From NCBI GenBank assembly GCA_965113315.1, contig OZ220369.1: a stretch of 64,000 bases of DNA, one strand, 5' to 3'. Under the pieces are notes generated by a model. That model worked only from the letters and a program-made list of their open reading frames with translations. It had not been told where the DNA came from and made no database searches. Positions 9,501-35,696 of this stretch are shown one piece after another. The stretch's first letter is position 1. Every line of letters begins with the position of its first letter. This DNA comes from Podarcis vaucheri. Lineage: Eukaryota. Made by a program: the position numbers and the translations under genes.

Positions 9501-12500
9501 ATTACTGTATGTTTCTTCCAGGCCAGAAGTAGAGTATTAAAATCACGGGGTGCAGGCAAAGCTGCCCATTTTGCAACCCTCTCTGCACCAGATAAGCCTG
9601 CCTGAGCAAAGCCAGAAACATCTAAAGTGATTCAGCAGCATGGAGCGGGGGAGGTTGAGTCCACAAATAGCACACGGACACACCAATCACTCACAATCTC
9701 TTACATTCCTAGATACTGAGCTTTTGATGGTGCTGTATTTTTGTTTTAAGTCACATTTCAAAGCTCAAGGAACCAATGGATCCACATACTGGGGAGGGGG
9801 GGGGTCTTCCAGGGTACTGAAAAAGAAGTGCAACCACAGTCACAATTTAGCAAACCTTCAAACTTCAGAAGTTTGAATATTTGAAACTGAGTTCTGATTA
9901 ATGCTTTAGGAACCCTGGACATTTTTAAACAGCAGGTTAAGCTCCCTCCTAAAGCCCAACATCCCAGTGTTCAAAATGAGGAATACTGTCTGTAAAGAAT
10001 TTTCTTTCGGTAGACTACGGGTCAAGTGTTTGTGAGTAAGCTCCACTTTCAACATCTCTATATTCTTTTGGCTGAAACGGCAACATCCGCTCCTCTTGGT
10101 AATCCACTTTCTGCAGGATGACGAAAGGAAGAGGCACTGGGGTGGAGGGAGAGAAACCAGCCGAACTTCTCTGAGGCCAGAAGCAGCCCAACCGCTGCTG
10201 CCCTCGCAGACAAGCCCAGGCCAGGGAAGAGCATCGGATGGGGTGGGGGATTGCACCACCCCCACCCACCAGGAAAGCCTGAAGCCAGCCGTGCCTGGGA
10301 CTGGGGAAAAGAGCCTTGAAATTGCAACATTACAGAGCTTCCTGCCTCCACATGGAGCATCGCCAGGCAGCAGATGGGGGCTGCTTGGGCAGAGAAGGAA
10401 AGTGTTGGAGGGGGGATCCTTTAGCCCTGAAGCCCACCGCGCCCAGAGAGCATTTTCCCCGCAGGCAGAATGGGCTCCCAGCCAGGAACCAGCAGGTGCT
10501 GCTGCTGCTGCAGGAGCAACCAGGGACCCGAGACGAGCGGACGGCTGCCTGCCGCCAAAGGATTTCCTGCCGCCGGGCCAACGGATCTCTCCCGGCTCTC
10601 TCCATCCCTCCAGGCAGGGCAAAAGCCGCTTTGGGTGTGTGGAAAATGCAGCCAAAGTACAAGGGCGAAATCCTCCTCCTCCTCCTTCCTGCCTGCGCGG
10701 AAGAAGCGCCAGCCGAGGAAAAGGCGGGTAGCCCGGAGCAGCAGGAAGAGGGCGCGCCTCGGGGCTGCCCCCGCCCAGCCAGCACCTGCAAGGCTGGCCT
10801 AGGGCTGCAGCGCGCGTCGGGGAAGGGGCCCAGCATCTTCCTTCCCTTAACCGGGCTCTAGTATGGGCGGGACCTGCTGCCGCCTCTCCAGGCGATGCAA
10901 GTGGCGGCGGCCCTGCTTCCCTCACAACGGCCCTGCGAGGTAGGGCACATTCTGGAGAACCCCCCGCTCCACGGAGCTTCCCGCTAGTAGGCTAGCCAGC
11001 CGGCCGGCCGGGCACCACAGGCAACGGCGGGTCATCTTTTCCTCCCGAGTCGCGATCAAGCACCTAGTCCTCAGCGCGCGCCTCTTCCTACCTGCGCGCC
11101 GCCGCCAAGAAGCGCACATCGCCCGGTCTGAATCCCAGGAGCAGCTGCCCACCAGACCACACCCTTCGCTCGGCTCAACCAATCACAGTGGGGTTCGCCT
11201 CTAGAAACGCCCCCGCCCGAGGGTGGAGCGGATCCAGATCAGCCCAGCGGAGCTCAGCAGCGCCCCCACAGGAGGGATGGCAAGATGCGGACTCCCTCGC
11301 CGCGCGCCACCGCGGCTAAAAATACCTTGATTCATCGTTGATGGTCATGACCATCACAATGAGCATTTTCTCGCATTGCAGGCGGACCGGGCCCCTCATG
11401 CTCTGGGAAGCTCCGTGTGCGCTGACGACCCGCCATACATAATACTGGTCGTGCCAGCAGCTCTACTCCCGCGTCTATCCCGCTGGCGGAACATTAAGGG
11501 GCGAGGGGAGAAAGGCTAAAAGAGTCCGATCAAGTGCGCTTGAGCTTCACCGCAGTTGGGAGTGACAAGGCTAAGGTTTTTGGGAAAGTAGGGGTGGGGG
11601 AGAGAGATTGATGGATGTGGGAGAGGAAAGTGGCAGCCCCTTGGACTTCTGGGCAGGAAAGGGGGCAGTCACAAGTTCAAGGTTAAGTTCAATGGGTTAT
11701 TATTAGGATATAAGGCCCTTAACATATTGGGACCAGTTTACCTATGAGATTGCCTTACCTCCTGTTCACCCACTCAACCGCTCCAATCTGCAGAACTGGC
11801 ACTATTACAGATGCCTCATAATAATACCCATTCCACATTTGTAAGAATTCAACATTTTAGTGTGGCAGCACCTACACTCTGGAACTCGCTGCCTATTGAT
11901 ATCAGGCAGGCGCTTTCACCCTACTATTTTCAGCACCTGCTAAAAACATTTCTATTTAGACTAGCCTACCCAGATATTTATGAAGCTAATGTGAGTTTGA
12001 ATCTGTTTTTGTTTATAGTTATTTTTACTTCTATTAAGTCTTAAATTATTGTTAATGCTTCCTATTTATAATATTATCCTGGTTGTTGTTGTTTTTTGTA
12101 AACCGCTTTAAGGTTGTTTGCAATCAAGCAGTGTGTAAATTTTATGGAATTAATAAATTAGGTAGAAGGAGGACCCCATTAATGGAAGGAGGGGGTAGAA
12201 GGACCCACTGTGCTGCACTAGGATATATTTCGGAGGCTCTCTTTCTGGTTTGTCTTTCCACTCATCTACAACAGCACATAGGAAGAGTTGCTGTCTTGTT
12301 GCCATTCTGCCCTAGAGTGACACAGGAGAGGGGGCTTTTGAGTCTGGTGGAGGCCCCATTGCACTAGCTAGCAAGCACCGGATCTGTCCCACCATGACAA
12401 ATGTATCTTGCTCACTTGCTCTCTCCAGGTCATCCTCTCACAGGCAGAGGATTTAATTGTTTATTTTATATTCTGACATACTCCCAGTGCAGGACCCATG

Positions 12501-15489
12501 GCAGCTCACAGCATAAATTAAAACATATATGGTATAACTAAGCACAAACAATCAATACAGACATTAAAAACTAACCCTATTACAAACAGCACTGAAACCA
12601 CTTAAAACCATTTAAATCCGCACACGCACATACACACACACACCACCGCTCAGAAACCCTACCACAACAGCCAGTTAGTGGCCAAAGGCCTGTCAAAACA
12701 AACAAGTTTTTGACTGCTGGCTAAAGGAAAGCTAGCCTTTTTGTGGAAGGGAGTTCCACCATCTGGGAGCAACCATGAAGAAGGCCCTCTCTCATGTCCT
12801 CATCAAGCATGCCTGTGAAAGTCGTGAGACTGAGAGAAATGCCTTCCTAGGAGATCTCAAAGCCCAGGCAGGCTAATTTGGGGAGATTCAGTCCTTCAGA
12901 TAGCCTGGACCCAAGCCATATAGGGTTTTATGATCACAACCAGCATTTTGAACTGCAAACAACCAGGCAGCCTTGTAACAACAGTGGAGCTGTTGTAACA
13001 AGGAGGATCCAAGCTACGTCCTTGCCAGCATCAGGGACCAAGATACTTCTGTCTGTTCCTCAGTGGGTTGTTAGACTACTTGCACAACGTAGGCTCCTCT
13101 AACCTTGCCAAACTGTGACCAAGGGAAGCCCAGGGCTTGGAAGCCCAGACCACATTTCTTATCATGAAATGCTGCACTGAAACGCATCAGTGACAATCAA
13201 GTATATGGTGGTTTGAAGCCTTTTAAAGAATTGGTCACTGTGGCAAGCTCCCATACAAGCCTCAGGACTTCAACACTGACCCCCACTCCAGTCCTTTGCA
13301 AAATTAAATGTAGCCCAAACTTCGAGGCCTTCCCATGAGTAACAGAGTATCGTACCTGCTGGGCTGCAGCGCTTCCTGACCTCTGTCAAGAAAGTCTGTG
13401 TCTGGGAACCAAAAGGCAGCTGCACTAGCAAGTTGGCATCGCTTGAGATGATCTGGACAGTGACATCAGAGCCTATAGGAGAAGGAGAGAGGAGAGCAGC
13501 ATGAACAACTTTGTGGGCTGACCTTGGGAGAAACATTTCTGGAGAATAAGCTTCAGGAGCACTCCTATTGCTGCCCTACCATGCAGCAGCATGGACAAAC
13601 CTGGGCACAGCTAAAGCTACCCAGAAGCCAATGGCTGCATCATTCTCTTTCCCCATAAGCGACCATGGAAATATCTGTATTGAAGGGCACCATTCACACT
13701 TATAAAATGAACAATATACATATGGACGCAGCAGTGGGGATCAGTGGCAGCACCTTCAGGCAAAGCTCCACATGTGTGCCTAGTACACAAAAACAAGGCA
13801 AGTTTTAATCTTTCAAAAAGCAATATTTCAGCTTTGGCTTTGAAGTGTGTGGTTGGTGAAGTTTCAGAATTCAGAAAGAGTGGGGCTGGGCACCCAAGAT
13901 TTGCTCTGTGGGCTGCAGGAGCTGCTCTGGGAGGGTGGCAGGAGGCGGGAAGGGAGAGAGAAATTAAATAAGAAACAAAGACTTAGTGGAAGCAGAACGA
14001 AACAAGCAGAGGAGCTCATCTCAGTGGGAACTGGCTGGCTTGGCCTGTGTTTTGCCCAGTCAGTGAATGCTGTAGCATTTCCCAGGTACAACAGTTTGGT
14101 TATTTGTGTAGTGTGGAGAACAATCCATGGCCCCGTTGGTGCTGCTCACAGCTCTGCTTGCCAGGGAGGGAGTGAAGCAATCCAAGAAGTGAAGGGCAAG
14201 CACCATCACACTTCTGGGGAATCATTGTTTACAAGAACCACAGCAGAAGCTTACCTACAATGTGCAGGTCATTCTCCCCGGCAACTGTCAAAGGAGAAAT
14301 TATTTTTATTATTTTAGTTATTTATTTGTATCCTGCCTTCTTCCTAGCCCAGGACTCAAGGTGGCTTGCACAAATTAAAGCAACACAGATAAATACAGAA
14401 AGCTAAAAACATACAAACAATAGTTTAAAAGCTGCCTGGCTGGTGGCTGGTGCAAATGCCACCAAAGGGGTTACCCTAAGCTCTCCCTACCCACACCGAC
14501 CATGCTACAAAGGCCTGGTCAATGATCATTATCTGGGGGTGGGGGTGGCCAAGGGACAGAAACACGGGTGACAACGTTCCCCAAAGAGTACACCCACCCC
14601 CACCCCCACCACCTGATTCTTTTGGGGGTCATTTGTCTTGGATTCCTCCTACTCAAGTGGCTCAACGGGAATCATTTCAAGTGTCCCGAGTCGCGGGAGA
14701 GGAGAGGAGGCAGCAGAGCCTTTCCTGCAGAGGAATGTGGCAACGAAGTCAATAAGCCAGAAAGGAGAGCTAGCCCTCACCTTCTTCCACGGCAAAGCCT
14801 TCCTGCAGGAGCAGGACCTTGTCCAGGCGCACGTCCTCGGCGGTGATGGCCATGCGCCGGTGGCTGTACAGGCAGATCCTGCGGAGACAGAGCCGGGAGA
14901 CCCCGCGCCCTCCCCATCAGAGACCAGGATCGTGGCCCCAGCACCTCGCCCACCACGTCTCAGCACCCCGGAGATGCTGCTCTCCCAAGCCCGCTCCTCC
15001 CTCTGTGCTCTCCGCAGCCCACTTCCCCCGGCCCCCTTCTGGGATCCCCAGCGCCCCCTTCCGCTCGCTCCCGGGAACCTGCTCCTCTCCGGGGCCGCGC
15101 GAGACGGAGGAGCTGGGAAAGGAGGAGCAGCAGCCGCAGCCGCACGGAGGGGCGGGGAGGAAGGAGGAGACCCGCCTCCTCTATTCCACGGCCGGCTCCT
15201 GCCCTCACCTGTCTCACCTGTCCCACCTGCCGGGCGCGGCGGACTTACATGGCTTTGCCGTGGCTCTCCACCAGGCCCAGCAGCCGGCTCTCCCCACCAG
15301 CCAGGAGCCCCTGCACCGCCTGCAGCCGGAGGTCAAGGAAGGGGCCGGAAAGTGCCGGAGTGGCGAGCGACCCCCGCCCCACCCTGCCCGTTCTCCCGCT
15401 GGGTCCTTCCCGGGGCGGCCCCCAAAGGATACGACCAGGCAGGTCTCCCCCGCCGAGAGCGATTCCTGGATAGGAACCGACTGATCCAT
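587..15489 (-). CDS. INPP5B: Type II inositol 1,4,5-trisphosphate 5-phosphatase, 5' part (14 coding exons; gene continues beyond the left edge)
   Basis: Exons 15489-15433, 15319-15249, 14878-14781, 14284-14255, 13472-13356, 8848-8746, 7556-7386, 6896-6795, 6076-5962, 5195-5079, 4261-4074, 3073-2962, 2443-2334 and 722-587. All are GT-AG with compatible phases (1527 nt, 509 codons). Starts [12 protein letters not shown] and includes HRRMAIT and QLPFGSQT (PH region) and the 5-phosphatase motifs [41 protein letters not shown] and SDHKPV. A pyrimidine tract at 1-56 looks like the acceptor of the next exon. Confidence 0.96.
1705..1930. mobile_element. Tc1/mariner (Tigger/pogo-like) MITE, 226 bp
   Basis: TIRs CAGTGGTACCT...AGGTACCACTG flanked by TA; internal TTCTTAACCTGA repeats; near-identical copy at 8167. 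Confidence 0.88.
2194..2230. repeat. Perfect 15-bp inverted repeat with 7-nt loop
   Basis: TCTTGTGCAGATGCT-ACAGAGA-AGCATCTGCACAAGA. Confidence 0.9.
4575..4800 (+). mobile_element. tRNA-derived SINE (Squam3-like)
   Basis: B-box-like GGTTTGAATCCC, CCTACCTCACAGGG core, AT tail. Confidence 0.75.
5225..5595 (-). mobile_element. CR1 LINE 3' fragment
   Basis: Translates to [30 protein letters not shown], a typical CR1 ORF2 C-terminus. Confidence 0.85.
6130..6420 (-). mobile_element. CR1-type LINE 3' end
   Basis: Reverse complement of the tail seen at 49980-50325. Confidence 0.7.
6548..6577. repeat. (GGA)n microsatellite
   Basis: Directly visible. Confidence 0.9.
7021..7255 (+). mobile_element. 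tRNA-derived SINE (Squam3-like)
   Basis: GAGAGCCAG head, B-box, (AATA)n tail. Confidence 0.8.
7998..8540. mobile_element. Non-autonomous hAT (Charlie-like) element
   Basis: TIRs CAGTGGTTCCCAAA/TTTGGGAACCACTG; degenerate 8-bp TSD CTTTAAAA/CTATAAAG; the 3' half aligns with the element at 32155. Confidence 0.85.
8167..8392. mobile_element. Tc1/mariner MITE, second copy, nested in a hAT element
   Basis: TIRs CAGTGGTACCTCGG/CCGAGGTACCACTG, TA duplication, same 226 bp length. Confidence 0.9.
10720..11500 (-). promoter_or_regulatory. Intragenic CpG island / internal promoter of INPP5B
   Basis: Dense CpG in an otherwise CpG-poor intron; CCAAT at 11179-11183; GC box CCCCGCCC near 11211-11218. Confidence 0.65.
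11092..11119 (-). CDS. INPP5B: Candidate alternative first coding exon of INPP5B (MCASWRRRA+G, phase 1)
   Basis: ATG at 11119-11117 and donor CAG|GTAGGA. Phase 1 matches the acceptor at 8848. It lies in a CpG island with CCAAT and GC boxes just upstream. Confidence 0.55.
11690..12160 (+). mobile_element. L2-type LINE 3' fragment
   Basis: Translates to [18 protein letters not shown]...[14 protein letters not shown], followed by an AT-rich tail. Confidence 0.8.
12450..12960 (-). mobile_element. L2-type LINE 3' fragment
   Basis: Degenerate [13 protein letters not shown] and KTCLF-like coding on the minus strand, with an AT-rich tail. Confidence 0.6.
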
Positions 15490-16080
15490 CCTGCGCGGAC
15501 GGCGGAGCAGGCAGCACTCCCCGCTGCTGCTGCAGGAGAGAGAGGGTCACCCGGACCCGGCCGGCAGCCCGCGCCGCAACCGGGGAGCGTCAGGAACCGA
15601 GCCGAGGAGTAAGCGGCGGCGCTGGAGCCTGCAGGCCTCTTTCCTTGAGCACGGCGGGGCGGGGGGAGAAGACGGGTCCCGCCTCCGGCCTGGCCGCGGC
15701 TGCCTTGGCGGCTCCGGCCTCCCGGGCGGGTGCAGGAAGGCGAAAGGAGGAGGCCGCCGACGCATGGGCGCTCCCAGGCCCCGACGAGGCGCGGGAAGGG
15801 CGGCTCCGGGCTCCTGCCACCGGCCTTCCGCCCATGGAGCGGCTACTGCCCGGGCTGCAAACCCTTTCTTTTTCGACGGACTCGCCGAAGCTAGACACCC
15901 ACCCGCCCCGTCTGCTGCCAATTGACAGCTTGCCACTTCCCTAAAATGATGCTGCCAGTTCCTCCTGGAAGGTGCAGGGCCCCCCACCCCGCCCCTCAGT
16001 ACATAGTGTGGCGGCCTGAGAATGCTCAAGACGGCAGGCGAAATCCGAAAAGCAAGAAGGCGACCAGGGCCAGACCTCAT
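14880..16080 (-). promoter_or_regulatory. CpG island spanning the INPP5B main promoter and first exons
   Basis: Very GC- and CpG-rich, with several GGGCGG boxes, and overlaps the ATG exon. Confidence 0.8.
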
Positions 16081-16230
16081 TGATCAGCCGCTGATCTTGG
16101 CAGTTACCTGTTGCAGTGATTGCAAAACCTTGGGTGGTTTTTCTGCCTCTGTGGAGGAGACACGGTGCAGGCCCAGGGCAGAGACATGGACTTTAAACAC
16201 ACACACACACTGCTCATCTAGTTAAATAGA

Positions 16231-16236
16231 TTTATT
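16231..16236 (-). terminator. Polyadenylation signal of the LU-like gene
   Basis: AATAAA on the minus strand, followed about 20 nt downstream by a GT-rich tract (16197-16210). Confidence 0.6.
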
Positions 16237-17066
16237 TGCAATTTTTAGGCAAGAGAAACATTTCTGATACTAGGAGTGAGGCGGTGGGTGGAAAGGACAG
16301 GCAGCCCAGCGAGAAAGTGGGTCCCTCATTTAAGGCAGCAGCTAAGATCAGCCATGGCAGCAAGGACCTTTAGGGGGGATAAGCAAACTCCCCCCCTTCT
16401 AGCTTGGCCCATCACCCCTGCAGAGCCAGAAGGGGGTTCACAGAGCCAGCTAGCAGGAAGCCAGGAGAGAGCAGAGTCACTCTAGTTTAAAGAAGAAGGT
16501 GGGGGGGCTCTCTCCCTTTCCTTCACCCCCCCTACCCTGATTAGAGGCTTTCTGTATAGCCCTTGGGACTCTGTCAAATAACAGAAGGCAACCTTCAGCT
16601 TTCTGCAAACCTGGAACAGTCTCCAAACAGTTAAATAGCTGCTCCTGGATAAATAGGACACCCTCCCCTATTTAATCCAAAAGAGAATTCCTGTCTCTTC
16701 TGTCACTTGCCCCCAGGATCAGGCTTGTGACCTGCTGGCTCCAGCTCAGATCTCCTGCCATCGTTCAGACCAGGGCAGAGGGAAGGAAAGTGGCTCTTGA
16801 TTATGTAGGTCTGAGCTAAATTATTGTTATTATTTATTCAATTTATATATCACCCTTTATCACAAGCTCACATAGCCCAAAGGTTCATAAATCACTTGGC
16901 CCTGGAAGAAAAAGGAGGGAAGGGGGGAAGGCATTTGCTGGATGCCTCGTGAGAAAGGCCCAAACCAAGTGGATTCCCCAAGGCAGAGAGGGAGAGAGAG
17001 GCAGAGAAGGGAGAGTTGTTTTTTTGCCACCACCTAAGGACCCGAACAGCTTCAGTTGTGCCCAGC

Positions 17067-17318
17067 CTAGAACAGGAGAGCATAGTTCAGGCTGAGGACG
17101 GCTGCACACGCCAGCAGCTGGAGCAGGGGGGTGAGGGCTACCACTTGCTTGGCTCCATTGAAGTGCACTTTGCCATCCAGCTTCAGGCAGCTGGTCTTGG
17201 GCATCGCCGGGCAGCACTCCTGGTAGCAGGGCACCTTGGACCCTGCGGAGCAGGGCGGGCCAGCCGTTTTGCAGACTTTGCTGCATCCAGCCACAAAGTG
17301 GGGGCCGGTTTTCTTCAT
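17067..17318 (-). CDS. LU-like gene exon 8 (domain 2, Cys6-12, GPI-type tail, stop)
   Basis: Strong acceptor; encodes ...YQECCPAMPKTSCLKL...NGAKQ followed by a hydrophobic C-terminus and TAG. Confidence 0.88.
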   Translation of the reverse strand: MKKTGPHFVAGCSKVCKTAGPPCSAGSKVPCYQECCPAMPKTSCLKLDGKVHFNGAKQVVALTPLLQLLACAAVLSLNYALLF

Positions 17319-20300
17319 CTGGAAGGAGAGAAAGAAGGAGGCATTGGCCCACACAAGTAGCAGACACAGGAACCAGTTGGGCTGCTGTTTCAGGCACTGG
17401 TACTGTGGGGGGCCCCAGAATCAAGCAGGGTGCCTGCAGAGGGTAGCTGGCACTCAGGGCTGCTGATGGGGATTTGGTGGGCCTCCCACTTTCTTCCTCA
17501 GACTTCAGATCTCTCGTCCTAAAAAGCAGACTTCCATTGGATGCTCCAGCACCCATTTAGCTAACTATTCTCATTTCAGAATCCTCACGACAGCCATCAG
17601 GGTGGCCACTGCCCACCCCTTTCCACATTGCTCTCTTGAGGCACGCAGCTCCTGCTGGTTTGTAAGGAGCTTACAAGGCTCAAGCTGCATTCTAAGGCAC
17701 TGCAGCAACACTTCAGACCCCTTCCCTGTGGAAGGGCTTCATTCAGAGGGCAGAACAAGAGCGTGGGCGTTTGGAGGGGGTGTTAACATTACAGGAACGG
17801 TACCTCGCAAAAATTAAAGCCCACAATGCAGCTGGCTGCGTGCTTCTGTCCCTTGTAGCACCCTTCTCCGTGGCAGGTGAAGCTTGAGCACACTTTCCCC
17901 TACAGAGGGAGGAAAGAGAGGCAGGCCATTGAATTGTGGACACCAGGGCTGTGCACTGGATTCAGCCAAATCCCCAGACAAATCAGGGCTGTTCAGAAGG
18001 ACGCAGGCATTTGTCAAGTTGGGTTCAGACAGTCACACATCTCTGCAGGTTGGACTGGATGGCCCAGAGCCATCCATGGCTGTCAGGAAGGAAAGAGAGG
18101 CAGGCAAGGCAGACAAACCCCACAAAAAAGCCCAGACTCTTCTGGGAGGAAGTGGGCCCAACTTCTTTCCTGCCCCCAGGGATCTCCTCCTCTGCTCAAC
18201 AGCTCTTCAATTAAATGATTGATCCAATGTGGGGGGGTGCATCCCTGGTGTTGGGCAGGAGGGAGGACATAGGAAAAGAACCAGGATCCCATTTCCCACT
18301 CATCCACCCACCCACTCTGAGGATGCCACCTGCCCCGCCAGCAAACAAGCCATCCCTTCCAGAACATGAAGTGACACCTACATTTTTAGGGGGTGCTTTG
18401 GTGGTGGTAGTGGTGGGCGCCGGCGTGGTGGTGGGCGGCAGATCACCTAGAACAGACATGAGAGATGGAAGAGCTGGCTGAGGCCCCCATGACCTCTTGA
18501 CCGACGGGAGAAGCTGTCATGCCAGACTGGCAGGTCAGAGAGAGGCTGGCTGTGGGCTGAAATCATGCCCTTCAGCTGCTCCAGGGACTGAGTCCCGAGA
18601 GCCAAGAAAGGCCTCTGAGAAGGCAGCTCTGCCCAGATGCCCCATAGGTCAGCTCAGCCTCCCCAGGGAGAAGTAATCCTGCCAAGCCGAGCATCTTAAG
18701 AGGCCTCCCATTGGGGGAGCTTACCATAGGCTGTAGCGTTGAGGAGCAGGCAGTTTGGGGAGCTGCAGCACTCCATTGAACACAAGTTCATTCTGATGGT
18801 GCCATTCTGCATGCACATGTCGGTGCCGTTGATTCCCCCACACTCACTGCTGCACCGGGCTGTGTAGCTGGTAGTGTTGAGGCGGAAGAGCTGCAAGACC
18901 CACCAAAGGGTTAGCAGGGCAAGGCTGACAACTGACCATCGCTGCATTATGATCCATGCAGAGAAGCAGGAGTGGCTGGACCCCACCAGCCCCACCGTAG
19001 CTGACCCCCCCACACACACTTGTAAGAACACAGTCCAGGACAGAGGCCAAGGCCACCCACAGTCCTTTGCAGCCTCTTCGGGGTTGTTGTTGTTGTTGTT
19101 ACTATTAGTTTATATACTGTACCACTCTTCAAGATCTTATGGTGGTTCACAGGATAAAAATACAAGGTAAAAACAAAAGTCAATAGTGAAAACAAAAACA
19201 TCAGAAGAATACCTCCCAAACCCATTTTAAAAGGCTGTAGAGTATTAATCAACTTTATAAAACCAAAAAAATACAAATACAAAATACAGATTGACATATA
19301 ACACTTTAAAACTGTTTAAAACAACCCCACTCAAATAACACCTCCAGGCTCCCTACCTCACAGTGTGTTGCATTGTGGCAGGTCTCTGTGCTGTTCCCAT
19401 GAGCTTCGTCATGGTAGCATCGCTCCCCGGAACACTGGAAGCTCTGGCATGTGAGCTGCAGAGGGAGATGGAGCTGAACCTTCATGGCAAGAAAACTAGG
19501 CAGCTGCCCTGGCCTCCCCAGGCCAAGCATCCTCTACCCTAGTAGCACCTCTCACCTGCGACCTGGACCTGACCTGCCACCTCCACTTGGACCTCCCAAT
19601 TGAATCATTTCCTGGTTCATATCTCTCACATACAAACCTACCCGATGAATACTTCCATCTGCAGGACATTCCTTCTCACCAAAGGGCTGCAGCCAGCCAG
19701 GAGCAGACAGTCCATGTCTGCCCCACACCCAGACATTCCCATCCCATCACCTCCAACTGGGAAGTGCCCAACATGCCCCCCCCAACACACAGCAGCGCCA
19801 TACTGGGTCAGTTTCTTACGTTCATCATGCCTGTGCTGTTCGCTGAGCTGCTGGGGACGAGGGGTGCTCCTGAAATGGGCCCAGGCTCTGAAAGAGGAAG
19901 CAAGAGGTTAGTAAATACCTTGGGGTGTGAGCCAAGGAAGTCTCTGCTCCTGCTAATGGCAGGAAGTTCCAAGGATCCGCCTCTTCCTCCCCTTCCCAGC
20001 ACATAGCCAGCCAGCCCTCTCACCTGCCAGTATACAAGAGGTCCAAGTACTGAAGTGCAGAGCAACCCAGAGGAGAAAGATGCCTGCAGATGGAAAAAAG
20101 TAAGACCATGTTTGTTTCTTGAAAGGCAGAGAGAAAAGGCACCTCTATCACCCACAGCTCACTGCAGGGGACCATCAGACAATGTCACATCAAGGCATTG
20201 ATGGATCCCATTGCAGACCACTGTTCTTTAGGGCAGTGGCAGAGCTTCATGCTCTGGCACCAGGGGCAGAGAGCAGGCGGGGGCGTGGCTGGCGCGGGTC

Positions 20301-20673
20301 CCGGGGGTGTGGCGCATTGCTTGTGGGGGTGTGGCAGCCAGTGCAGGGGGGGACAGCCACAATGACACCCCACCAGGATCGTGGTGTCGGGGGTGGTGCA
20401 CTCCCCCTGCCCCCCTCTTCCTCTGTCAGCGCTTTAGGGTGGGGCTCTTGTTCTTTTACCAGATGGTTGGGCAAGCAGAAATCCAACAAACAGTAACTCC
20501 CCAATACTACCCCGGTTCCTCTGACTTGCTCAGGAGACACTCTATGTCTTCCATATATCACCTTCGCCAAGGAGCGAGTCACATGTCAGGCTGTCACCTC
20601 TGCCAGAAATTCCACCACAATGAAGCCTCTTACCCTGGGCTGGGAGAATCCGGTGGTTGTTGGGACTTGCCAT
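17067..20673 (-). CDS. Uncharacterised secreted/GPI-anchored protein with two 12-Cys Ly6/uPAR-like domains (281 aa, 8 coding exons)
   Basis: Exons 20673-20634, 20083-20024, 19887-19820, 19455-19357, 18890-18725, 18446-18382, 17899-17804 and 17318-17067, all GT-AG, 846 nt, open frame. Protein: MASPNNHRILPAQGIFLLWVALHFSTWTSCILAEPGPISGAPLVPSSSANSTGMMNLTCQSFQCSGERCYHDEAHGNSTETCHNATHCELFRLNTTSYTARCSSECGGINGTDMCMQNGTIRMNLCSMECCSSPNCLLLNATAYGDLPPTTTPAPTTTTTKAPPKNGKVCSSFTCHGEGCYKGQKHAASCIVGFNFCEMKKTGPHFVAGCSKVCKTAGPPCSAGSKVPCYQECCPAMPKTSCLKLDGKVHFNGAKQVVALTPLLQLLACAAVLSLNYALLF*. Confidence 0.88.
17804..17899 (-). CDS. LU-like gene exon 7 (domain 2, Cys1-5)
   Basis: Encodes GKVCSSFTCHGEGCY...NFCE; phase 0 to 0; this frame is not in the supplied ORF track. 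Confidence 0.85.
18382..18446 (-). CDS. LU-like gene exon 6 (mucin-like Pro/Thr linker 2)
   Basis: Encodes GDLPPTTTPAPTTTTTKAPPKN; phase 1 to 0. Confidence 0.85.
18725..18890 (-). CDS. LU-like gene exon 5 (domain 1, Cys6-12)
   Basis: Encodes LFRLN...ECCSSPNCLLLNATAY; donor G|GTAAGC; phase 0 to 1. Confidence 0.88.
19357..19455 (-). CDS. LU-like gene exon 4 (domain 1, Cys1-5)
   Basis: Encodes LTCQSFQCSGERCY...THCE; phase 0 to 0. Confidence 0.85.
19820..19887 (-). CDS. LU-like gene exon 3 (Pro/Ser linker 1)
   Basis: TACTAAC branch point plus pyrimidine tract, donor AAC|GTAAGA; phase 1 to 0. Confidence 0.8.
20024..20083 (-). CDS. LU-like gene exon 2 (hydrophobic signal peptide core)
   Basis: Acceptor TTTTTTCCATCTGCAG, donor CAG|GTGAGA; encodes GIFLLWVALHFSTWTSCILA. 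Confidence 0.8.
20634..20673 (-). CDS. LU-like gene coding exon 1 (MASPNNHRILPAQ)
   Basis: ATG in GAGATGG context; donor AGG|GTAAGA; phase 1 fits the next exon; acceptor candidates upstream near 20695 and 20705. Confidence 0.7.
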
Positions 20674-23600
20674 CTCTAGCCAAGGGGATCTAATCCTGTA
20701 GGACCCTGCAGAGTGGGCAACAGGGAAGAAACATATGTATGTATTTCTCAGATTTCTCAGCACGCACACCCCGAGCACAAGGAGGCGATGCAAGCAACCC
20801 CTAAACTCAAGACAAAGCTGTAGAAAGGATCTTAAACAGGGTCTTGGCAGGACCTATCTCAGTTCACTAGGAGCAATGGGTTGAATGAAGCAGGGCCCTT
20901 TGCACATTCCTGTGTTTTGGTCTTCTCATCCAGGTAATGAGGCTGTGCAGTCACTGGCTAGGAATCTGATCAGAGCATCAGGTGTGCCCACAATAGGACG
21001 GTGGGCCCTTGAAAAGTGGCTCACTCAAGGAGAAAAGGCAGAAGGAGATGCTTTGAACCATCAAGCCATTTCTCCACCTGGCCAGTATAGTTGGAGCCAC
21101 CTGAGCATCTGGATCTGGTCACAGTCTGCAAGGACAGAACTTGAGCTGCCACAAGTACTGTAACATCCACTGGAGGGAGTCAGAACAGAAGACATTACAC
21201 CTGCCTTCCTGGGGAAAGTCAGCTTGGTCTTTCTCTATGAGAGTGATTATGCACAGGCTGCTGTCCCCCGTCCCCCACAACAACTTCACTGCCTCAGGCT
21301 GTTGCTAGATCCCAGCCCTGCAGCACCTCCGGGAACAGATGCTGCCAATTTTGAGCCATGAAGTGCTAAACAAACCCAGCAAAAGGAGAAGACCTGCAGG
21401 GAAGACCATCCCCCTCCCCATTATTTCTGTGTGGTACCGCCTGTGTGCCTGATGCTTTTACAGGAGGGCAGCACCTTCCCTTGATGAGCTTCCAGTCTTA
21501 AATATGACCACAGAGAAAGAGGAGAGGAAGCAAGCAAGCAAGCAAGCAAGCTGGATGTGCCTCCATTTTGGCTGCATGGCCTTGGGCTTCATTGCAGAAA
21601 GCCAGGGAGGGGGTTTCGCAGGCAGGCATCCTGGGAGGCAGCTCCAGGCATGCAAGAGGAGCTGCTGGAGGGAGGAGACCTTGGGATGGCTGAAGGCTGT
21701 GGAAAGAAGGTCACAGGCAGAGAGAGGCCTTTAGGTATATGAGAGCAGCAAAGAGAGAAGACCAAGCCAAGCTCAACCTTAGGAGCTTTCTTGACAAAAG
21801 AAAGTGAGTGTCAATTTGGAGCATCAAGTTGTGCGCAGTGAGGTGCATTTTTAGTAACTGCCAAGCTTTCTTTGCTCAGAGACTCAGCAAAACCTAACAC
21901 TGAGCAAGTCTTAGAGAAAGTCTGGCTGCTTTTGATTGCGAATTGATGGATGGGGGTGGGGTGAGCTGCTGCAGCTCTGGATCACTTTATCTATTGCAGG
22001 GGGTTGGATTAGGTGACCCTTGAAGTCCTTCCAACCCTACAATTATATAGTTCTATGATAATATGATTCTCTTGTGTCTCCTACAATTAGCCTCATGCAT
22101 CTTATTCCATGTGAAACCTCTTCTGGATTCCTAGAGGACAGGAAGTGCCATTATGGGTAGTTGCTGGTTTAGCCTTTCCCTGCAGTGTTGGAAGTGCTTG
22201 GCAGGGGGTTGGACTCGATGGCCCTTGTGGTCTCTTCCAACTTTATGATTCTATGACACCCCCCCCCCAACCTCCTCTTTGGGAAATCTTGCAATGTCTT
22301 CTTAATTAAAGCAAGTCATTAAAACAGTTAATATATGCTCATCAGCTTTATAAACTACGCTAAACGGGGTAATGTTTATTGGTAACACTTTCATTAAAGG
22401 GTAATCATTTTATGTCTCTATTCAATACTTATTTTGTTTCGAAAACACATAGCATGACTATTCCCAGGGGGCTTAGCAACAAATACAAAGGATTTAACAA
22501 GTAAACCCCAAGTAAAATAGGGGGGGGGCAGCAGGACAGAATACATACTTAATGCAGGAACATAGAAAAATCTAACAAGCAGAGTCAGTAAGTCAAAGGC
22601 AGAATGAGAAAGTCTCTGACTGGTGCACAAAACACACCAGTCAGACATGGGCAAACCTCCTCCAGCGAGCACATTCCTGTAACCAGAAGTTGCCCCTGCC
22701 TCACCTCTGGGGCACCCCCATTATCCGTGCTGGGCATATTGGCAGGTTTGCGCAGGATAAATTCAAGGAGTCCATACCATCTGAAGTTTCGCTGGTCCAC
22801 TGTGGGACCTTGACTTGTGCCACCAAGAAGAATGACCACCAGTCAACATCCTGCTGAAGATTCCTACATTCCCGCATTGCAGGAGGTTGGATGAGATGAC
22901 CCTTGAGGTCCCTTCCAACTCTACAATTCTATGATTCTATTATCTGTTCCCACCAGCAACAACGGCTCTCGCACTGAGCATTTGGCTGCTCTGTGTCTCA
23001 TTCCCTGGTCAAATCTGCTTAGCCTTTAGCCTGATAACCCTCCAAGGCCTTGATCTCTTGTGGTGCTTCGTTAAGGCCATTAAAGCAGCTGCTGGTGAAG
23101 CGGTCAAAGGGGTAAGAGCACTTGCAGCAACAAGTACAAAGAGCTATGAAGGCTGTGGGCTGAGTTCCAGGAACCCCTGCAGGTCCCCAAGCAGTGGCTG
23201 CCATGGAGACTGGAAAATGACACACCCAAAGGCCCAGGGCTCCTCGCTAATGACATGTGCTGTTGGCCCAGCAACCCTGTGTTTGGTTGAGCCCCAGAGG
23301 AAAAATGGGAAAGCTGTAGACAGATATCAAGGACAGAAACCCTCAAGAACAGAAGCCTATATCCTACCAGCACCTCTGGCCAGCCAACCTACACTCAACA
23401 GTCAGCAAAAAACCTCATCATCTCAGCCCTGGGTCATCCCCACCACTCTTGACAACCACTTTGGAAGCTTGGGGGACCAGTTGAGCCATTAGTTTTAAAA
23501 GCAGGGCCTGGGCTCTTCCCTAAAGGCACTGCATATCTGAGAAAGATACCAGTTTGGATGATGAAGTGCAGCCCATTCACTTTCCCAAAACAGAGATCTG

Positions 23601-25474
23601 CCAGAAAGGAACTGAATACCAAAGCTCACGCCACGATGCTCTGTTCCTTTGCTTGGTTTCAACCCTCTTAGAACCTCAAGGAAGCGCTGCAAATTCAGAG
23701 GAGTCCTCAGGAACCAAAGCATTCAAGTTCTAATCCAGAAAAATGTATAATCCACAGACCATCCTTCTAGCTAAGGAGCTGGAGCTTGGTAGGGTTTGGG
23801 GAATGTCTTTTCTTTCAGAGGGCCTCCACCCCACCTGATTGTTCAGGATCCCATCGTACGTTAAGGATGCAAGTTGAGGAGCCAACTCTCCTTCATCCAG
23901 GGATGGATTGTCTCACTCAGAAGCCCAACTCAATACATTTAGAGGACCAGTCCCCTCTGTAGCAGGCAGGTCTCTCATACATACACACTATCAAACATGC
24001 ACCCCCCTCCCGCCTTCCTTAGCTAGTCCCCCAAAGGAACCCACCAGCTGCGCTCACTTACCTCGCCCTAGAAGCCTGTCTGAGCAATGTCTTCCTCCTG
24101 TGCTGGCAGAAGAGGTGCCCCTTGGGGAGCCCTCCTCCCCGCCCAGGTGGAGATGGCACCAACCAGCAGGTAGAGTGGAGTGGTGGGAGAAAGGAGGGGT
24201 TTGCTTCCATGATGCTCTGGGCAACCGAGGCTGCTCTCCCCACATGGGGCCCAGAACACATGGCAGGATGAGGCACAATCACCAAGGCTGGCTTCAGGGA
24301 GTCTTTGAGTAAAGGCATCAGAGCACTTAAGATAATCCTCATAAGATGGGGAAAGGAGTTCCATCCTTCCCCCCAACAAAGACTGTATGCTGTTTACAAT
24401 AAGGATCTGATGATTCAAGCTTTTCAGGCAGACCTCTGGTATCAGAAAGATCTGCATGTGCCGCTCAACAGCTGGAAGTTCCTCTCCACCTACGAAACAT
24501 CTTTCAATGGGACAAAAGGTTAGGCTGCTGTGGAGAGGGGCACTACTTGGGGGGCAGGTCCACAATACTGATTGCAATAGACTGCTGTAGGTGTACAGAG
24601 ATAAATTAAGGTGGGGGGTGGGGGGGTCTCACCAGTAATGCAACAAAACAAAAAGGATGGGGTGGAGTGAAGGGGCAGGAGACCTGGGGTACTTGGGACC
24701 ACCCCCCTCATACTACCCCTGGGGAGAGGGGGGTTACCCTTTCTTTTTTAAAAAATTCAGTCTTTAGAGTTGGCAAAGCTTGGAAGAGTAAATAGGAGGA
24801 TTTTATATTGTTCTGAGAGAAATGGCCAGGGAAGGAGTCTTCGGGATGGAAGCGGGGAGAGACTAACAGCTTTGAGGATGGAGCAGCTGCCTTGCTGAAA
24901 GCCACAGCTAGGAGGCAAAACCTACATCCCACCCTTTCCTAGAGACCTCCTCACCTGGGTGATGCATTGCAGAAACTTGGCAGCAACAAAGACCTTGCCA
25001 GACAAAGTGTAGTGGCCACTTTGGGGAGGATCGAGAGGGAGTTTCTCAAAGAAGAGAGTCTGGGTGTGTGGCTAAATGCTGCCAATACAGTTTATCAAGA
25101 AAGGGAGTCTGTGTGACTGTATATAAATGCTGCTGTTCCATTACAAGTCTAGGGTTGTTCCTCAAGTGAGATGGAATAGGTTCTGAACTTAGCCCCCCCC
25201 TCCCCATGGCAGAACACCCCAAATCTCCCCCAACCAGGGCACCCAAGAACACAGCTCAGCCAAATTGCCCTTCTCCCACTTCCAATCAGGCTGCAGCCAC
25301 CCCCAGGTGCCCATCAGGGCCTCGCCTTGCTCAGGCAATTACAGCAACAAATCCATCCCAATTAGGGTAATTAGCCACGCTCTCTGTTCCCAGCAGGTCT
25401 CTGGGGTCCTTGGGTAGCAGCAGAGAAATAACAAGAAAAAGAGGAACTAAACTCAGGGAGAAGAGAAACACAGA

Positions 25475-25665
25475 AAGCTGCCTTATACTGAATCAAGACC
25501 ATTAGTCCATCTAGCTCAGTACTGTCTGCACTGACTGGCAGCAGCTCTCCAGGATTTCAGGTGGGAGTCTCTCCCAACACAACCGGGAGATGCTGCAGGA
25601 AACTGAACCTGGGATCATCTGCTTGCAAGGGAGATGCTCTAGCACTGAGGTATGGTCCTTCCCCA
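25475..25665 (-). mobile_element. tRNA-derived SINE with CR1-like tail (Squam2-like)
   Basis: Matches the copies at 30115 and 43520. Confidence 0.7.
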
Positions 25666-26517
25666 AACAGAGACTTCACAAGACACAGATGTTACATGTG
25701 GTGGGTCATGTTATGGTATTCCCTTGTGGCTTGCCAGAGCAGCCGCCACCGCCACCACCACTGCAGCCACCTTGGATGGTTTTACCTCCTTTTCCAACTA
25801 GATTGCAACCCCCTTGTCGCATACGCATGTGAGGCCTGCAAGAGCATGCCTGTCCTTTCCACCCAGGAACTCCCTGCCTCAGAGCCACAATAGCTGTATT
25901 CCAGAGCAAATGGCCCTTAAGAGAAGCATTCTGCTCAGAGAGAAAGGTGCCTGTAGGCATTAGGACCCAGGAGCTGGAAGCAGTAGCAGGATATTTACCA
26001 GCAGCTGCTGAAGAAGCGGGTGGGTTTGGGGAAACCTAGTGAACACAATTGCCTGTCACAGCCAGGCCTTGAGTAGCTGCAAACAAAGGCACTTTCTTCT
26101 TTTCCTCTCCACTCAACTGAAACAGAAATGGGCCTAGTGAACTACAAGGAGGTACAAAGGAACAACCCTAAAATCATAGACCTGTGGAGTTGGAAGGGAC
26201 CCCAAAGGCTTGAGTTCAACCCCCGCAGTGCAGGAATCGCAGCTAAATAATCCCTGGCAGATGGCCATCCAATCTCTTCTTAAATATATCCAATGAAAGA
26301 GTCCACCAGCTTCTGAGGGAGTATTTTCTGTATCTTTGGGAAGTGAAAGTTCAACTCTGGCTTAGTTCTCAGTGAGGGACTGAATCTGTGCCTTGTGTCC
26401 CACTTCTAGTGAACAAGGATGCATTATGTGTGAAAGAAGCTGGAAGCCTGAACATGTCTATCAAATAAAGCTGAAGACCACACCAGGTGCCCATTCCTTC
26501 TGCCTTTAAAACTAAGG

Positions 26518-26523
26518 TTTATT
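26518..26523 (-). terminator. SF3A3 polyadenylation signal
   Basis: AATAAA about 150 nt after the stop codon. Confidence 0.7.
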
Positions 26524-26669
26524 TTTTATGAAAAAATTGTTACAGGAATCATCACCCTGTGAGCTGTAAGTGTCCTTGAAGCACCCGCTCCCATGGAGGA
26601 GGGAAGAACAGGCACACACGCTACATGGGAGGTCTGGGGTGGGGTGTGTCGGGCCAACGTCTCCTCTGA

Positions 26670-29600
26670 TCACAGCAGGCCTTGGCGCTTCAGATCTTCG
26701 TAGGTCTTCTTGTTGACCACGTTCCCACTGGAATCCTCGTATTCCTCCTAGGTTGACAGAGAATCCCAGGTGTGGGGAAAACCAGGAAAGCAGTACCAGG
26801 GCCCTAAGGCGAAGGTCTCCCCCACCATGGAGACAGCAAAGCGCTGAAACCCAGAAGCTGCTGCCACAGGCAACAGAAGCCTCTGCGGGCACCCTGCCAG
26901 CCCGGCCACTGGGGGAGAAGTGGAGCGGCATCCGCCTCAAGCGGCAAAATGGGATGCACTGCCTCTGCTGAGACTCTCTGAGGAGCCAATCTAGTCCAGC
27001 CTCCTTTGGCCAATCAGGTGCTTCTGGGAAGCCCTGAAGCAAGGCAGGAGAACAACAGAGAGCATTCCAGCACCCCTCTATGCTGCATCTGAATATGGAG
27101 GCTCCACTGAGCTGTCATGCCCTGTTTCTGACATTCAGCCCTGAGTGCTATTGCTTATGCGACCAAAACACCCTCACCAAAGCACAAAAGGGAAGAATCA
27201 GTAGCCCAAGGAGAAGCCAATGCACGGAAACATGTTTAGACCAATGAAACCCCGCAGCCAGTTAACTACATGCTGGGAGTGGGGCGGGGACACACAACAG
27301 ATGCTTGTGTAGGAGGGGAAATAGGGTGGACAGTTATGGAGGAAACAGCCAATGTGGACATGGGAGGAGCTCCTCTCCACCCTGGGACATTTCAGGGCAG
27401 GCTCCCCTGGTCACGTGACCGGTACCAACCAATAGTTCTTATCCCCCATGACTTCAGTGGGCATGGCTAGCCAGCGCCAGCCTTTGCATTCCCTTTGCTA
27501 AACATTGGGGACCTGGGTAGAATTTGCCATGGGGACCGGAGCTGAAGGCACACACACCACTAACCCCCGGCCTGGTCCTCCCAGTCCCATTCCCAACAGA
27601 CAACTGCAAGGGATGTCCCAACCCAGCTTACTTCTGTGTCCGGCTGCCACCTCTCCGAAGCCTTCTGTTGCTTCAGCTTTGCCCACACTGTAAACACACA
27701 TGCACAAACTGTCAGAGGTGACTGTCAACTGCTCGCTCCCAGTCACAATCCAAGATACCCAGGTGGAGGGATAGCTGCTACTCTGCTTGGGGAAGCACCA
27801 GAAGCCCTGCACCCCTGCCCAACCAGGGGTAAAGGATCAGGCTCCTGCCACACAAGTTGCCCCTCTGAGAAGCTCCACCCACCCAGTCACTCTGCTGATC
27901 CTGGCACATCAGCAAAGAGGTAAATAAATCACACAACAAGCCAGCAGCTGACAGAGGAGGCCCATCACTCTGACAGGATGGCCCCCACCCCCCACAATGT
28001 GAAACTGGCAGCCACAGGCAAGCCCAGGGCCAGGAAGGCAACTTGTGGCTACTTACATGAAACAGCATCTTCAATCTGCGTGACGTTGGCAAAGTGAGCT
28101 GTGTTGGGGATTCCCAGGCATCGCATTCCATGGGCGTGGCGCCATTCCTATGGAACACAGAGGAGCATCAAGGCTTGGCCATGATGGAGCCAAAGTGCTC
28201 CAGAGGGAGGGGGGAAGGAGGGCAGAGAAGAGGCTGGCCTGTGCCACTGCGCAGAACTGCCACACAACCTGGGTCTCGAAAAGAAGGCTAAGCTAAAAAG
28301 CAGCCTGCATGGGTGGGGGCTCTGCAAGTGTTAAGATTCAAGGACTACTGCCTAGCAAGAGCCCTGAACCTCATGCAAGCTGATAATTTGTTCAAACACC
28401 CCCCCCCCCAAATAAATATTTTGGCACTTTCCAGTGTCCTACCGCAAAGTGTCGTTGGAAAGCTTTGGGCCCACGGTAGGTGTAGTTCCCACAGATCTCA
28501 CAATTGTAGTTGATGTTCAGGCCGTGGAGCTTATACAGCCAATAAGGGATGGGCTGGAAGGCAAGGGGGGGAGGAAGAGAGAGTGAGCACACAAAGCAGT
28601 CACTTCCTCCCATCCCCTGGGGTGTGCTGTGAGCCCCACAATGAGCCGGGCTTACTTTGCCATCCCACCCAAGGGGCAGGTTCTTGGGGTTGTAGATGAT
28701 TTCGTTCTCTTCGTCTTCACTCTCACTCTCACTGATCTGTTCCTCCTCCTCCTCCTCGCGTTCCTCACCAGTCCGTGCCTGCTTGCGCTGCACATTTTCA
28801 TGAGTCAGCTGCCGCTGCTCCTACAAGGATTGGGAAACAGAGGCAGTGAGTACAGTAGGAGGCCTATTGAACCACAACAGAACCCCAATGGCTAGGGAGA
28901 AGAATGGGAGACAGAGCTTACCCCAAGAATCTCCACGTGCTCGTAGATCTGAGCCTCCAGGAAAGCCAAGTCCTTGTTCCTCTCAGTGTCCCTGTCAAGG
29001 AAACGGCTCGATGAAGGGATAAGGCTACACACACACACCACACCACTTGCAGCACCAGGAGGACCCACATGGGCTGCACAGCTCAGGTTGCTAGTCAAAG
29101 CTAAGGCCAAGGACAGCATCTCTCCCACCCAGCCACTGGCAGAGAAGCAAGGAAGCAAGGAACTGCCCCTCTGCCGGAAGGTGATCTGAGCAGGATATGT
29201 TCAACTTCACCCCAGCCATACCCCCATGGGCCTCACCGCTTGCTCCCCTTTGTCTTTGGGTTCTTGGCAAAGAGAGAAGGGTCAAGGGCCTCCAGAGACT
29301 TGCCCTTGGTGCTGAACAGCCTCTGAGCACGTTCCTCTAGCGTCCTGGAGAGGAGGAAGAGAAGAAACGCATTACGTGCTTGCATCTCCAGATCCGGATA
29401 AACCCAGAGCTCATCCAAACAACCAGACCTCTCATGTAAGAACATAAGAGCCTGCTGGGTCAGGCCTGTGGCCCATCAAGTTAAACATCCTGTTCTCACA
29501 GAGGTCAACCAGATGCCCCAGTATGAAGATCACAGGCAGGAATCGAGTACAAGAGCACTCTCTTTTCCTGTGGTTTCCAGCAAAGGGTACTCAGAAGCAT

Positions 29601-35350: not shown

Positions 35351-35438
35351 TCGCCCAAAGTTGTCCCCCAACTTTGTCCCACAGTAGCAGTGCCTTTTCT
35401 TCCTGATAACTTGTAAATGTCAGATATTTGCCTTATAG

Positions 35439-35696
35439 CAGGCACGTCCAACAGGTAGATCGTGATCTAGTGGTAGATCACTAGACGTCTGTGGTAGATC
35501 ACTGGCTCCCCCCAAAGAAGCTCAACAACTTTGTCTCCCCTAAAAAAAGCTCAACATTACTGCCTTGCACCCCCAAAAAGGGTGCTTTCCTCTTCCCTAA
35601 AAAAACTTTTACCTGAACCCCCCAAAAGGGGGTAGATCACTGCAAGTTTTTAACTCTGTGAGTAGATCGCAGTCTCTTGGGAATTGGCCACCCCTG
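35439..35696. mobile_element. hAT MITE with perfect 8-bp TSD
   Basis: TSD CCTTATAG on both sides; imperfect TIRs CAGGCACGTCCAA/TTGGCCACCCCTG; subterminal GTAGATC repeats. Confidence 0.85.

Follow-up and report, generated by a model that had tools for sequence, protein, structure and literature searches.

A two-domain gene between INPP5B and SF3A3

A 64-kb stretch of DNA from the lizard Podarcis vaucheri (analyzed whole, and called the window here) contains a minus-strand gene located between INPP5B and SF3A3. The gene belongs to an old, conserved family that resembles the Ly6/uPAR (LU) family, is missed by Pfam, and has an unusual gene structure; it is annotated but unnamed, and its fold and role appear to be undescribed. 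Its eight exons splice into 846 nt, comprising 281 codons and a TAG stop, and the open reading frame (ORF) is intact, as the initial annotation of this DNA had proposed. The features of the gene are as follows.

Exon 1, 20634–20673, minus strand: start codon (G at −3 and +4) and the first 13 amino acids of the predicted signal peptide
Exon 2, 20024–20083, minus strand: hydrophobic core of the predicted signal peptide, from hydropathy and intron phases
Exon 3, 19820–19887, minus strand: Ser/Pro-rich N-terminal spacer (amino acids 34–56), much longer in birds and fish
Exon 4, 19357–19455, minus strand: first half of domain 1, Cys 1–5, phase 0-0
Exon 5, 18725–18890, minus strand: second half of domain 1, Cys 6–12, to 18747, followed by an N-glycosylation sequon
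Exon 6, 18382–18446, minus strand: Pro/Thr-rich linker between the domains, low in model confidence, a probable O-glycosylated stalk
Exon 7, 17804–17899, minus strand: first half of domain 2, Cys 1–5, phase 0-0
Exon 8, 17067–17318, minus strand: second half of domain 2 to 17184, hydrophobic tail, stop TAG at 17069–17067
Candidate glycosylphosphatidylinositol (GPI) site N252-G253-A254, 17159–17151, minus strand: in exon 8, ahead of the hydrophobic tail
Candidate polyadenylation signal AATAAA, 16833–16838, minus strand: ~230 nt past the stop

The seven introns are 136–550 nt in length and all have GT-AG ends. Donors fit the MAG/GTRAGT consensus at 5–8 of 9 positions, and six of the seven acceptors have at least 13 pyrimidines out of 17, a level attained by 14 of the 239 AG sites across the gene body (a set that includes the true acceptors). 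Introns 3, 4, 6, and 7 are in phase 0, and introns 1, 2, and 5 in phase 1. The spliced product equals an independent RefSeq model from Podarcis raffonei at 271 of 281 residues without gaps. The same junctions are broken or skipped in variant database models from other species: extra sequence is inserted directly past the Cys-Glu of domain 2 in a guineafowl isoform and between the linker and domain 2 in a gharial model, a chicken isoform departs after the linker exon, and a green-turtle model drops exon 7 in frame. Because the product agrees so closely with an independent model, and with a cysteine pattern intact from shark to platypus and variant models that break at these very junctions, a chance splice or a pseudogene can be set aside with near certainty.

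The start methionine is shared with several orthologues, including those of other reptiles. The P. raffonei model has 26 extra N-terminal residues; such a longer N-terminus was rejected for the window gene, as there is no upstream in-frame ATG in the window. CpG observed/expected values at the gene start are 0.09–0.24, that is, there is no CpG island, versus 0.73 at INPP5B. The absence of an island suggests that expression may be tissue-restricted. The poly(A) site is uncertain, since the nearest AATAAA (16838) sits in an AT-rich run. Two such short simple-repeat runs occur, at 16820–16860 in the 3’ flank and at 19083–19110 in intron 4; apart from these, the window showed no match to an interspersed repeat, and Rfam had no matches within the window.

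The encoded protein consists of a predicted signal peptide (amino acids 1–33), a Ser/Pro spacer, domain 1 (amino acids 57–137), a Pro/Thr linker, domain 2 (amino acids 167–243), the N252-G-A motif, and a hydrophobic tail. Signal-peptide cleavage probably occurs between A33 and E34, at the position of a phase-1 intron, and orthologues have a small-residue motif before E or D in the same region. As described initially, each domain has exactly 12 cysteines, and both domains end in C-L. Spacings between consecutive cysteines are 4, 4, 12, 5, 13, 3, 8, 10, 3, 0, and 4 in domain 1, and 4, 4, 9, 6, 12, 3, 6, 7, 3, 0, and 7 in domain 2. The two spare cysteines (30 and 269) are in the predicted signal peptide and the predicted GPI tail, leaving 24.

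These 24 cysteines are near-invariant in an alignment of 87 relatives (48 with a named source and 39 without), which was compiled from 158 homologue records. Excluded from it were fragmentary sequences, duplicated isoforms, models that were fused or mis-spliced, a number of redundant birds, and four mammalian-looking sequences from among the 100 matches of a hidden Markov model (HMM) scan; these four are absent from all alignments, trees, and row counts, and nothing is drawn from them. The order of the cysteines is compatible with the ten-cysteine LU bond set (1-5, 2-3, 4-6, 7-8, 9-10) plus one pair in loop III, and Cys 8 and 9 of each domain are in the interval of the extra loop-III disulfide of LYPD6-type proteins.

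The local score between the two lizard domains is 80, a value that none of 2000 shuffles attained, and a profile-profile comparison gives a probability of 99.2 (E 1.6e-19); the domains are related to each other in sequence and evidently arose by internal tandem duplication. This duplication predates the split between sharks and bony fish, since both domains are present in shark. The linker has a median of 37 residues between flanking cysteines. The spacer encoded by exon 3 grows into Ser/Thr/Ala-rich repeats in bird and fish relatives (among them P0018, P0025, P0073, and P0160), with up to ~260 residues before domain 1. Members of the family are mislabelled as mucin-2, mucin-5AC, or mucin-22-like because of these long Ser/Thr-rich extensions.

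Hydropathy and the alignment identify the features of a GPI-anchored protein: an N-terminal signal, a small-residue omega site, a spacer, and a terminal hydrophobic stretch. The lizard protein has no charged cytoplasmic segment after this stretch. In 79 of 86 rows, 25–45 residues follow the last conserved glycine, the tail has a 15-residue hydropathy mean of at least 1.5 in 82 of 86 rows, and the candidate omega region is occupied by small residues across the alignment. The GPI-type architecture predicted initially from the sequence is consistent with these observations.

Predicted three-finger fold and relation to the LU family

The P. raffonei protein was modeled with AlphaFold on the basis of the 87 relatives. 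Block means of the predicted local distance difference test (pLDDT) are 79–93 for domain 1 and 76–96 for domain 2, and the linker is disordered. Comparison of this model with 48,161 solved chains yielded 41 at Z≥2; three-finger proteins fill the first 39 places, and unrelated chains reach a Z of 2.8 at best. The highest scores were for Lynx1 (Z 7.2; root-mean-square deviation (rmsd) 2.9, 69 aligned), GPIHBP1 (Z 7.1; rmsd 3.2, 72 aligned), and uPAR (Z 7.1; rmsd 4.4, 82 aligned). Similarly, a model of a grouper protein having domain 2 only (pLDDT 87, 64 sequences) had three-finger proteins as the top 38 among the best 50 matches listed, with a best Z of 7.2. The models thus support a three-finger, LU-like fold for both domains, as had been suggested from the cysteine pattern. 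No LU subfamily is closest among the structural matches, which fits a distant branch. Best scores in the ESM Atlas were 0.79 and 0.78, which are leads only, and the neighbors found there are LU-clan clusters at 0.75–0.78, under the 0.9 lead threshold.

Canonical LU domains have a non-glycosylated asparagine directly after the last cysteine, and their genes generally have phase-1 flanking introns and, mostly, an internal intron at the tip of loop 2, features that are typical rather than absolute (PMC6600238, section 2). No row has an asparagine directly after the last cysteine, either in domain 1 (0 of 85; 78 Leu) or in domain 2 (0 of 86; 78 Leu, 8 Met), so that the replacement of C-N by C-L noted in the lizard holds throughout the family. 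In 77 of the 85 rows, domain 1 has an asparagine slightly further on, at +2 or +4; the one in the lizard is part of a sequon. Each domain is encoded by two exons (4 and 5, 7 and 8), as in LU genes. The phase-1 module is not seen; instead, the introns before and within both domains are in phase 0. The internal introns are located one residue after Cys 5 of each domain, after E89 and E198, which places them inside a predicted strand, 4–5 residues ahead of the hairpin turn in the model.

LU-type Pfam families (UPAR_LY6, Toxin_TOLIP, Activin_recp, DUF753, and related) matched 0 of 87 members at E≤1, with scattered unrelated weak matches only, and no Pfam family was found for the lizard, turtle, bird, snake, platypus, coelacanth, or shark proteins. 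The profile of the 87 relatives matched 0 chains among PDB sequences at E≤10. An earlier zinc-finger match in PDB (E 0.06) was taken for Cys-rich noise. Because the terminal asparagine, the intron pattern, Pfam, and PDB sequences all fail to connect it to canonical members, we call the gene LU-like and place it outside the canonical family. Neither the phase-0 introns nor the difference in glycosylation between the domains (see below) was part of the initial account.

Range, age, and neighboring genes

The best match to an exon 8 query was RefSeq uncharacterized LOC128418969 of P. raffonei; 33 proteins were found by this query, 32 of them with source named. A profile search gave 74 matches (70 with named source), and a platypus query 26 (25 named). 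Named carriers are lizards, snakes, turtles, gharial, many birds, platypus (LOC103167129), coelacanth, tarpon, bonefish, grouper, and horn shark. An HMM scan of 1.84 billion representatives resulted in 100 matches at E≤0.001. As this range runs from shark to platypus, the gene is old and not restricted to a lineage, contrary to one initial suggestion. The other, loss in mammals, is not supported as stated, given the platypus gene.

A quick tree of 65 rows (the window gene, 26 named, and 38 others), in which many deep forks are unsettled, broadly tracks the vertebrate tree, with a support of 100 for the amniote clade. Beyond amniotes come a group of seven, probably amphibian by their position in the tree, and then coelacanth, shark, and ray-finned fish. 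The gene is apparently single-copy and at least as old as jawed vertebrates. No marsupial or placental record was named in the exon 8, profile, and platypus-query searches, and the same word-index search missed most fish-like and all amphibian-like relatives. Absence from therians is therefore weakly supported, since that search named no amphibian and few fish, though the HMM scan found many.

Some records are unusual. P0103 is a complete two-domain relative on a very long branch (1.56); should a jawless vertebrate be its source, the family would date back further. Among P0132, P0151, P0152, and P0143 are three divergent records with a domain-2-like unit only (two on long branches) and one in which domain 1 occurs twice; they could represent fish paralogues or errors in gene models.

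No named, characterized orthologue was found in any sequence or profile search run, including those of Pfam and PDB, in line with the initial annotation. The gene had also been taken to be unrecognized. It is not, as RefSeq and GenBank hold the same model as an uncharacterized protein in dozens of species. Among open-access articles, no main text mentions six LOC identifiers of the family (supplementary tables and subscription journals being outside this coverage), and, among the papers listed on INPP5B–SF3A3 or on such a family, no title or abstract describes the gene.

The placement between INPP5B and SF3A3, all on the minus strand, agrees with the initial description. Neighboring features of the window are as follows.

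INPP5B, 578–15364, minus strand: downstream neighbor, matched exons, with a CpG-rich 5’ region at ~15–16 kb
SF3A3, 27623–34264, minus strand: upstream neighbor, matched exons
FHL2/3-type gene, 59685–60254, plus strand: LIM-domain exons (LIM E 2.2e-22), on the strand opposite to SF3A3

The first-exon ATG of SF3A3 is presumably at ~34473 on the minus strand, judging by the N-terminus of SF3A3. Between the last matched SF3A3 exon and the start of the gene is a gap of ~7 kb (20700–27600), which is CpG-poor and has AATAAA at 26523 and 22380. No paralogue was found in the window apart from the gene’s own exons, and no UTP11-like ORF was recognized by eye in 34200–39200. Human FHL3 and SF3A3 are on one strand, which would imply a local inversion.

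Fused gene models lend support to synteny with INPP5B. In green turtle, one record (P0032) fuses SF3A3, the two-domain gene, and INPP5B in the same order as in the lizard window, and a fish-like record (P0127) fuses the two-domain gene to the PH domain of INPP5B (E 3e-50). In a bonefish record (P0097), an INPP5B-like piece with a weak PH match (E 2.7e-4) precedes the gene, opposite to the lizard order, which is unexplained. Since gene predictors fuse the gene with its neighbors, some database proteins called INPP5B or SF3A3 carry its domains. No annotated protein-coding gene is known in the human INPP5B–SF3A3 interval. Human INPP5B adjoins SF3A3 in an OMIM list for 1p34.3 (PMC5053025), although lists of this kind leave out uncharacterized genes.

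Possible function and known counterparts

The protein is very probably GPI-anchored and composed of two three-finger domains. The signal peptide encoded by exons 1 and 2 would direct it into the endoplasmic reticulum, and a GPI anchor would replace the hydrophobic tail at about N252. The 24 remaining cysteines could form six disulfides per domain: the LU bonds 1-5, 2-3, and 4-6, two C-terminal bonds, and an extra LYPD6-like bond in loop III. Because it would have no cytoplasmic part, the two-domain protein could not signal alone. It would instead most likely be an accessory factor or co-receptor, in one or a few tissues. LU domains generally use their loops and concave sheet for contacts with other proteins (PMC6600238, section 2), and Lypd6, which is GPI-anchored, acts via Lrp6 (PMC6600238).

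The two domains differ in predicted glycosylation and charge. N-glycosylation sequons average 5.5 in domain 1 and 0.6 in domain 2; of the 79 two-domain rows, 78 have more of them in domain 1, and in 71 domain 2 is the more basic domain. These counts overstate independence because the rows are related and bird-heavy. Domain 2 of the lizard is identical to that of platypus, coelacanth, and tarpon at 53, 46, and 36 of 81 positions, respectively; domain 1 is identical at 38, 31, and 20 of 84. A glycan-rich domain 1 and a bare domain 2 suggest that the latter is the partner-binding part. Domain 2, which is also better conserved and membrane-proximal, would contact a neighboring receptor or channel, or a soluble ligand, and heavily N-glycosylated domain 1, along with the Ser/Thr/Pro stalks, would be a spacer, shield, and trafficking aid. 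We consider this division of labor, with partner binding by domain 2 and a glycan spacer or shield formed by domain 1 and the stalks, plausible, with the balance tipped slightly against it.

Besides the relatedness of the rows, several points weigh against this picture. A basic domain 2 is chiefly an amniote feature, with many fish-like rows near neutral, and in P0095, a row placed next to horn shark (P0160) in the tree, domain 2 is markedly acidic, with a net charge of −12. In horn shark, domain 2 is not better conserved (32 of 81 versus 34 of 84 for domain 1), and mean conservation of non-cysteine columns differs little between the domains (0.54 versus 0.51). As for the architecture, the disulfide pairing is deduced from the order of the cysteines, and the core of the lizard signal peptide is only moderately hydrophobic (peak 1.57). 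The predicted template modeling score (pTM) is 0.44, so the relative placement of the domains is not fixed by the model. No VIA Z reaches 8, and Z values in this range can reflect a common arrangement. Foldseek gave no match at E≤0.001, the best being 2e-3 for the lizard and 2.2e-2 for the grouper model.

A different role for glycosylation is suggested by LYPD8. The human protein is GPI-anchored with eight predicted glycosylation sites, and the mouse protein is shed and has N-glycans that matter for function (PMC5725809). By analogy, the lizard protein could be a shed, glycan-rich GPI protein of mucosal or skin epithelium, in which the N-glycans of domain 1 and mucin-like stalks hold off microbes. 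It has eight N-sequons, all ahead of domain 2; the relatives have a mean of 5.5 in domain 1, and long Ser/Thr-rich N-terminal extensions occur in birds and fish. However, the invariant residues are concentrated in the unglycosylated domain 2, and no search detected sequence similarity to LYPD8. Many host-defense families show lineage-specific expansions, and no large ones are evident among the named rows of the tree. We regard such a role as rather unlikely.

The descent of the domains is a separate matter, compatible with any of the functional readings. The three-finger domains may have an origin other than the canonical phase-1 LU exon module, constituting instead a separate, very old branch or a convergent disulfide-rich β-sheet. 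This would account for phase 0 at introns 3, 4, 6, and 7, for an intra-domain intron inside a strand rather than at the tip of loop 2, and for the lack of a terminal asparagine, of an LU Pfam match in the 87 rows, and of a PDB sequence match. Against this, the cysteine order, the CC-xn-C end, and the use of two exons per domain all fit LU proteins, the intron that follows the signal-peptide exons is in phase 1, a feature shared with LU genes, and the ESM Atlas neighbors are LU-clan clusters, albeit at 0.75–0.78 and thus below the 0.9 lead threshold. Outright convergence is made improbable by structural matches that cover the full domain. Overall, a separate origin seems unlikely.

A gamete or egg-surface protein retained in egg-laying lineages, like Bouncer, SPACA4, or two-domain TEX101, also comes to mind. 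The named carriers are all egg-laying or ancestrally so, and platypus is the only named mammal in the exon 8, profile, and platypus-query searches. Bouncer, a GPI-anchored LU protein on zebrafish oocytes (PMC6600238), provides a precedent, and TEX101 is among the structural neighbors, although its match is no better than those of other LU proteins. The gap in marsupials and placentals is weak evidence, as the word-index search missed most fish-like and all amphibian-like relatives. Species-recognition proteins are expected to evolve faster than is indicated by the 53 of 81 domain 2 identities between lizard and platypus. This role is, in our view, distinctly unlikely.

Lastly, the tail might be an uncleaved membrane anchor, or the protein mainly secreted, with no GPI anchor in either case. 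In seven of 86 database models the tail is outside 25–45 residues, being longer or missing, but these outliers look like alternative 3’ gene models. Small residues at the candidate omega site, a short spacer, and a final hydrophobic stretch with no cytoplasmic tail behind it are found again and again in the alignment, making the absence of an anchor highly improbable.

Returning to a GPI-anchored protein with a partner-binding domain 2, we tentatively put forward a broader view, possible though doubtful as a whole. The family would be an undescribed three-finger branch of jawed-vertebrate age or older, with its own phase-0 exon module and 12-cysteine domains without the asparagine, maintained as a single gene beside INPP5B from shark to platypus and lost or decayed toward humans. 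Its bare domain 2 would bind a conserved receptor or ligand in a process, whether egg, mucosal, or sensory, that live-bearing mammals dropped or rewired. If true, this would mark vertebrate cell-surface signaling that is invisible from human and mouse genetics, and if the gene is absent from humans, a candidate surface pathway lost in mammalian evolution. Surveys of LU proteins begin from human genes or Pfam models, the latter of which the two-domain family evades (0 of 87), and databases tag its members as “uncharacterized” or “mucin-like.” A family kept from shark to platypus does without the “invariant” terminal asparagine and the phase-1 exon module, which shows that both can be dispensed with. 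The gene is apparently single-copy and present in teleosts and chicken, making a knockout directly feasible.

Among known proteins, LYPD6, LYPD6B, and Lynx2/LYPD1 are alike in having 12 cysteines and a GPI-type tail. Each contains six disulfides, the additional bonds being located in loops I and III (PMC7582953), so that the extra disulfide is not the novelty it was first thought to be; the cysteine order of the lizard domains likewise permits the extra loop-III bond. The LYPD6 group differs in being single-domain and in having the first two cysteines three residues apart and a long loop-I bond (Cys3, Cys6-Cys15), versus C-x4-C-x4-C here. Structural matches to Lypd6b (Z 6.2; rmsd 3.4, 74 aligned) and Lynx2 (Z 5.7; rmsd 3.2, 71 aligned) are no better than those to ten-cysteine LU proteins. 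No sequence match to this group occurred in the PDB profile search, though Lypd6b and Lynx2 structures appear among the structural matches, and none of its members is named among the exon 8, profile, or platypus-query matches.

Tandem LU domains and a GPI anchor occur in C4.4A/LYPD3, Haldisin/LYPD5, TEX101, PINLYP, uPAR, and CD177, and the best Foldseek rows were uPAR (E 2e-3) and C4.4A (E 3.7e-3). The review list of human LU genes (PMC6600238, section 2) names none known to lie at the INPP5B–SF3A3 locus. Human multi-LU genes are all in the PLAUR cluster at 19q13 (PMC6600238, section 2), and mammalian multi-LU proteins have a domain 1 without the 7-8 bond (PMC6600238); criteria for membership in the cluster also come from PMC6337849. 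The lizard gene differs from these in its INPP5B–SF3A3 locus, in 12 cysteines kept in both domains, and in the Pro/Thr linker between them.

LYPD8 is likewise a GPI-anchored, heavily N-glycosylated LU-type protein; it showed no similarity in any search, and the lizard protein has two domains with glycans mostly on the first. A zebrafish cluster on chromosome 21 encodes seven two-LU GPI proteins (PMC6600238) and so offers a parallel outside mammals for LU domains in tandem combined with a GPI anchor. It differs in having a ten-cysteine signature and in being clustered; the lizard gene has 12 cysteines in each domain and no paralogue in the 64-kb window.

Ectodomains of TGF-beta family receptors and snake three-finger toxins share the fold (Z 3.4–6.2), but the lizard protein has no transmembrane kinase part and is not a short secreted single domain. 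A venom toxin was rejected because the protein has two domains and a signal for anchoring, and because every major reptile group, as well as birds and fish, has orthologues; the snake sequences show the same degree of conservation as those of the remaining reptiles and fall in the same tree. The gene does not encode a new kind of system, as the three-finger fold, six disulfides, tandem domains, GPI tail, and mucin stalk all have precedents; it represents a second, independent type of vertebrate multi-domain LU gene, outside the PLAUR cluster.

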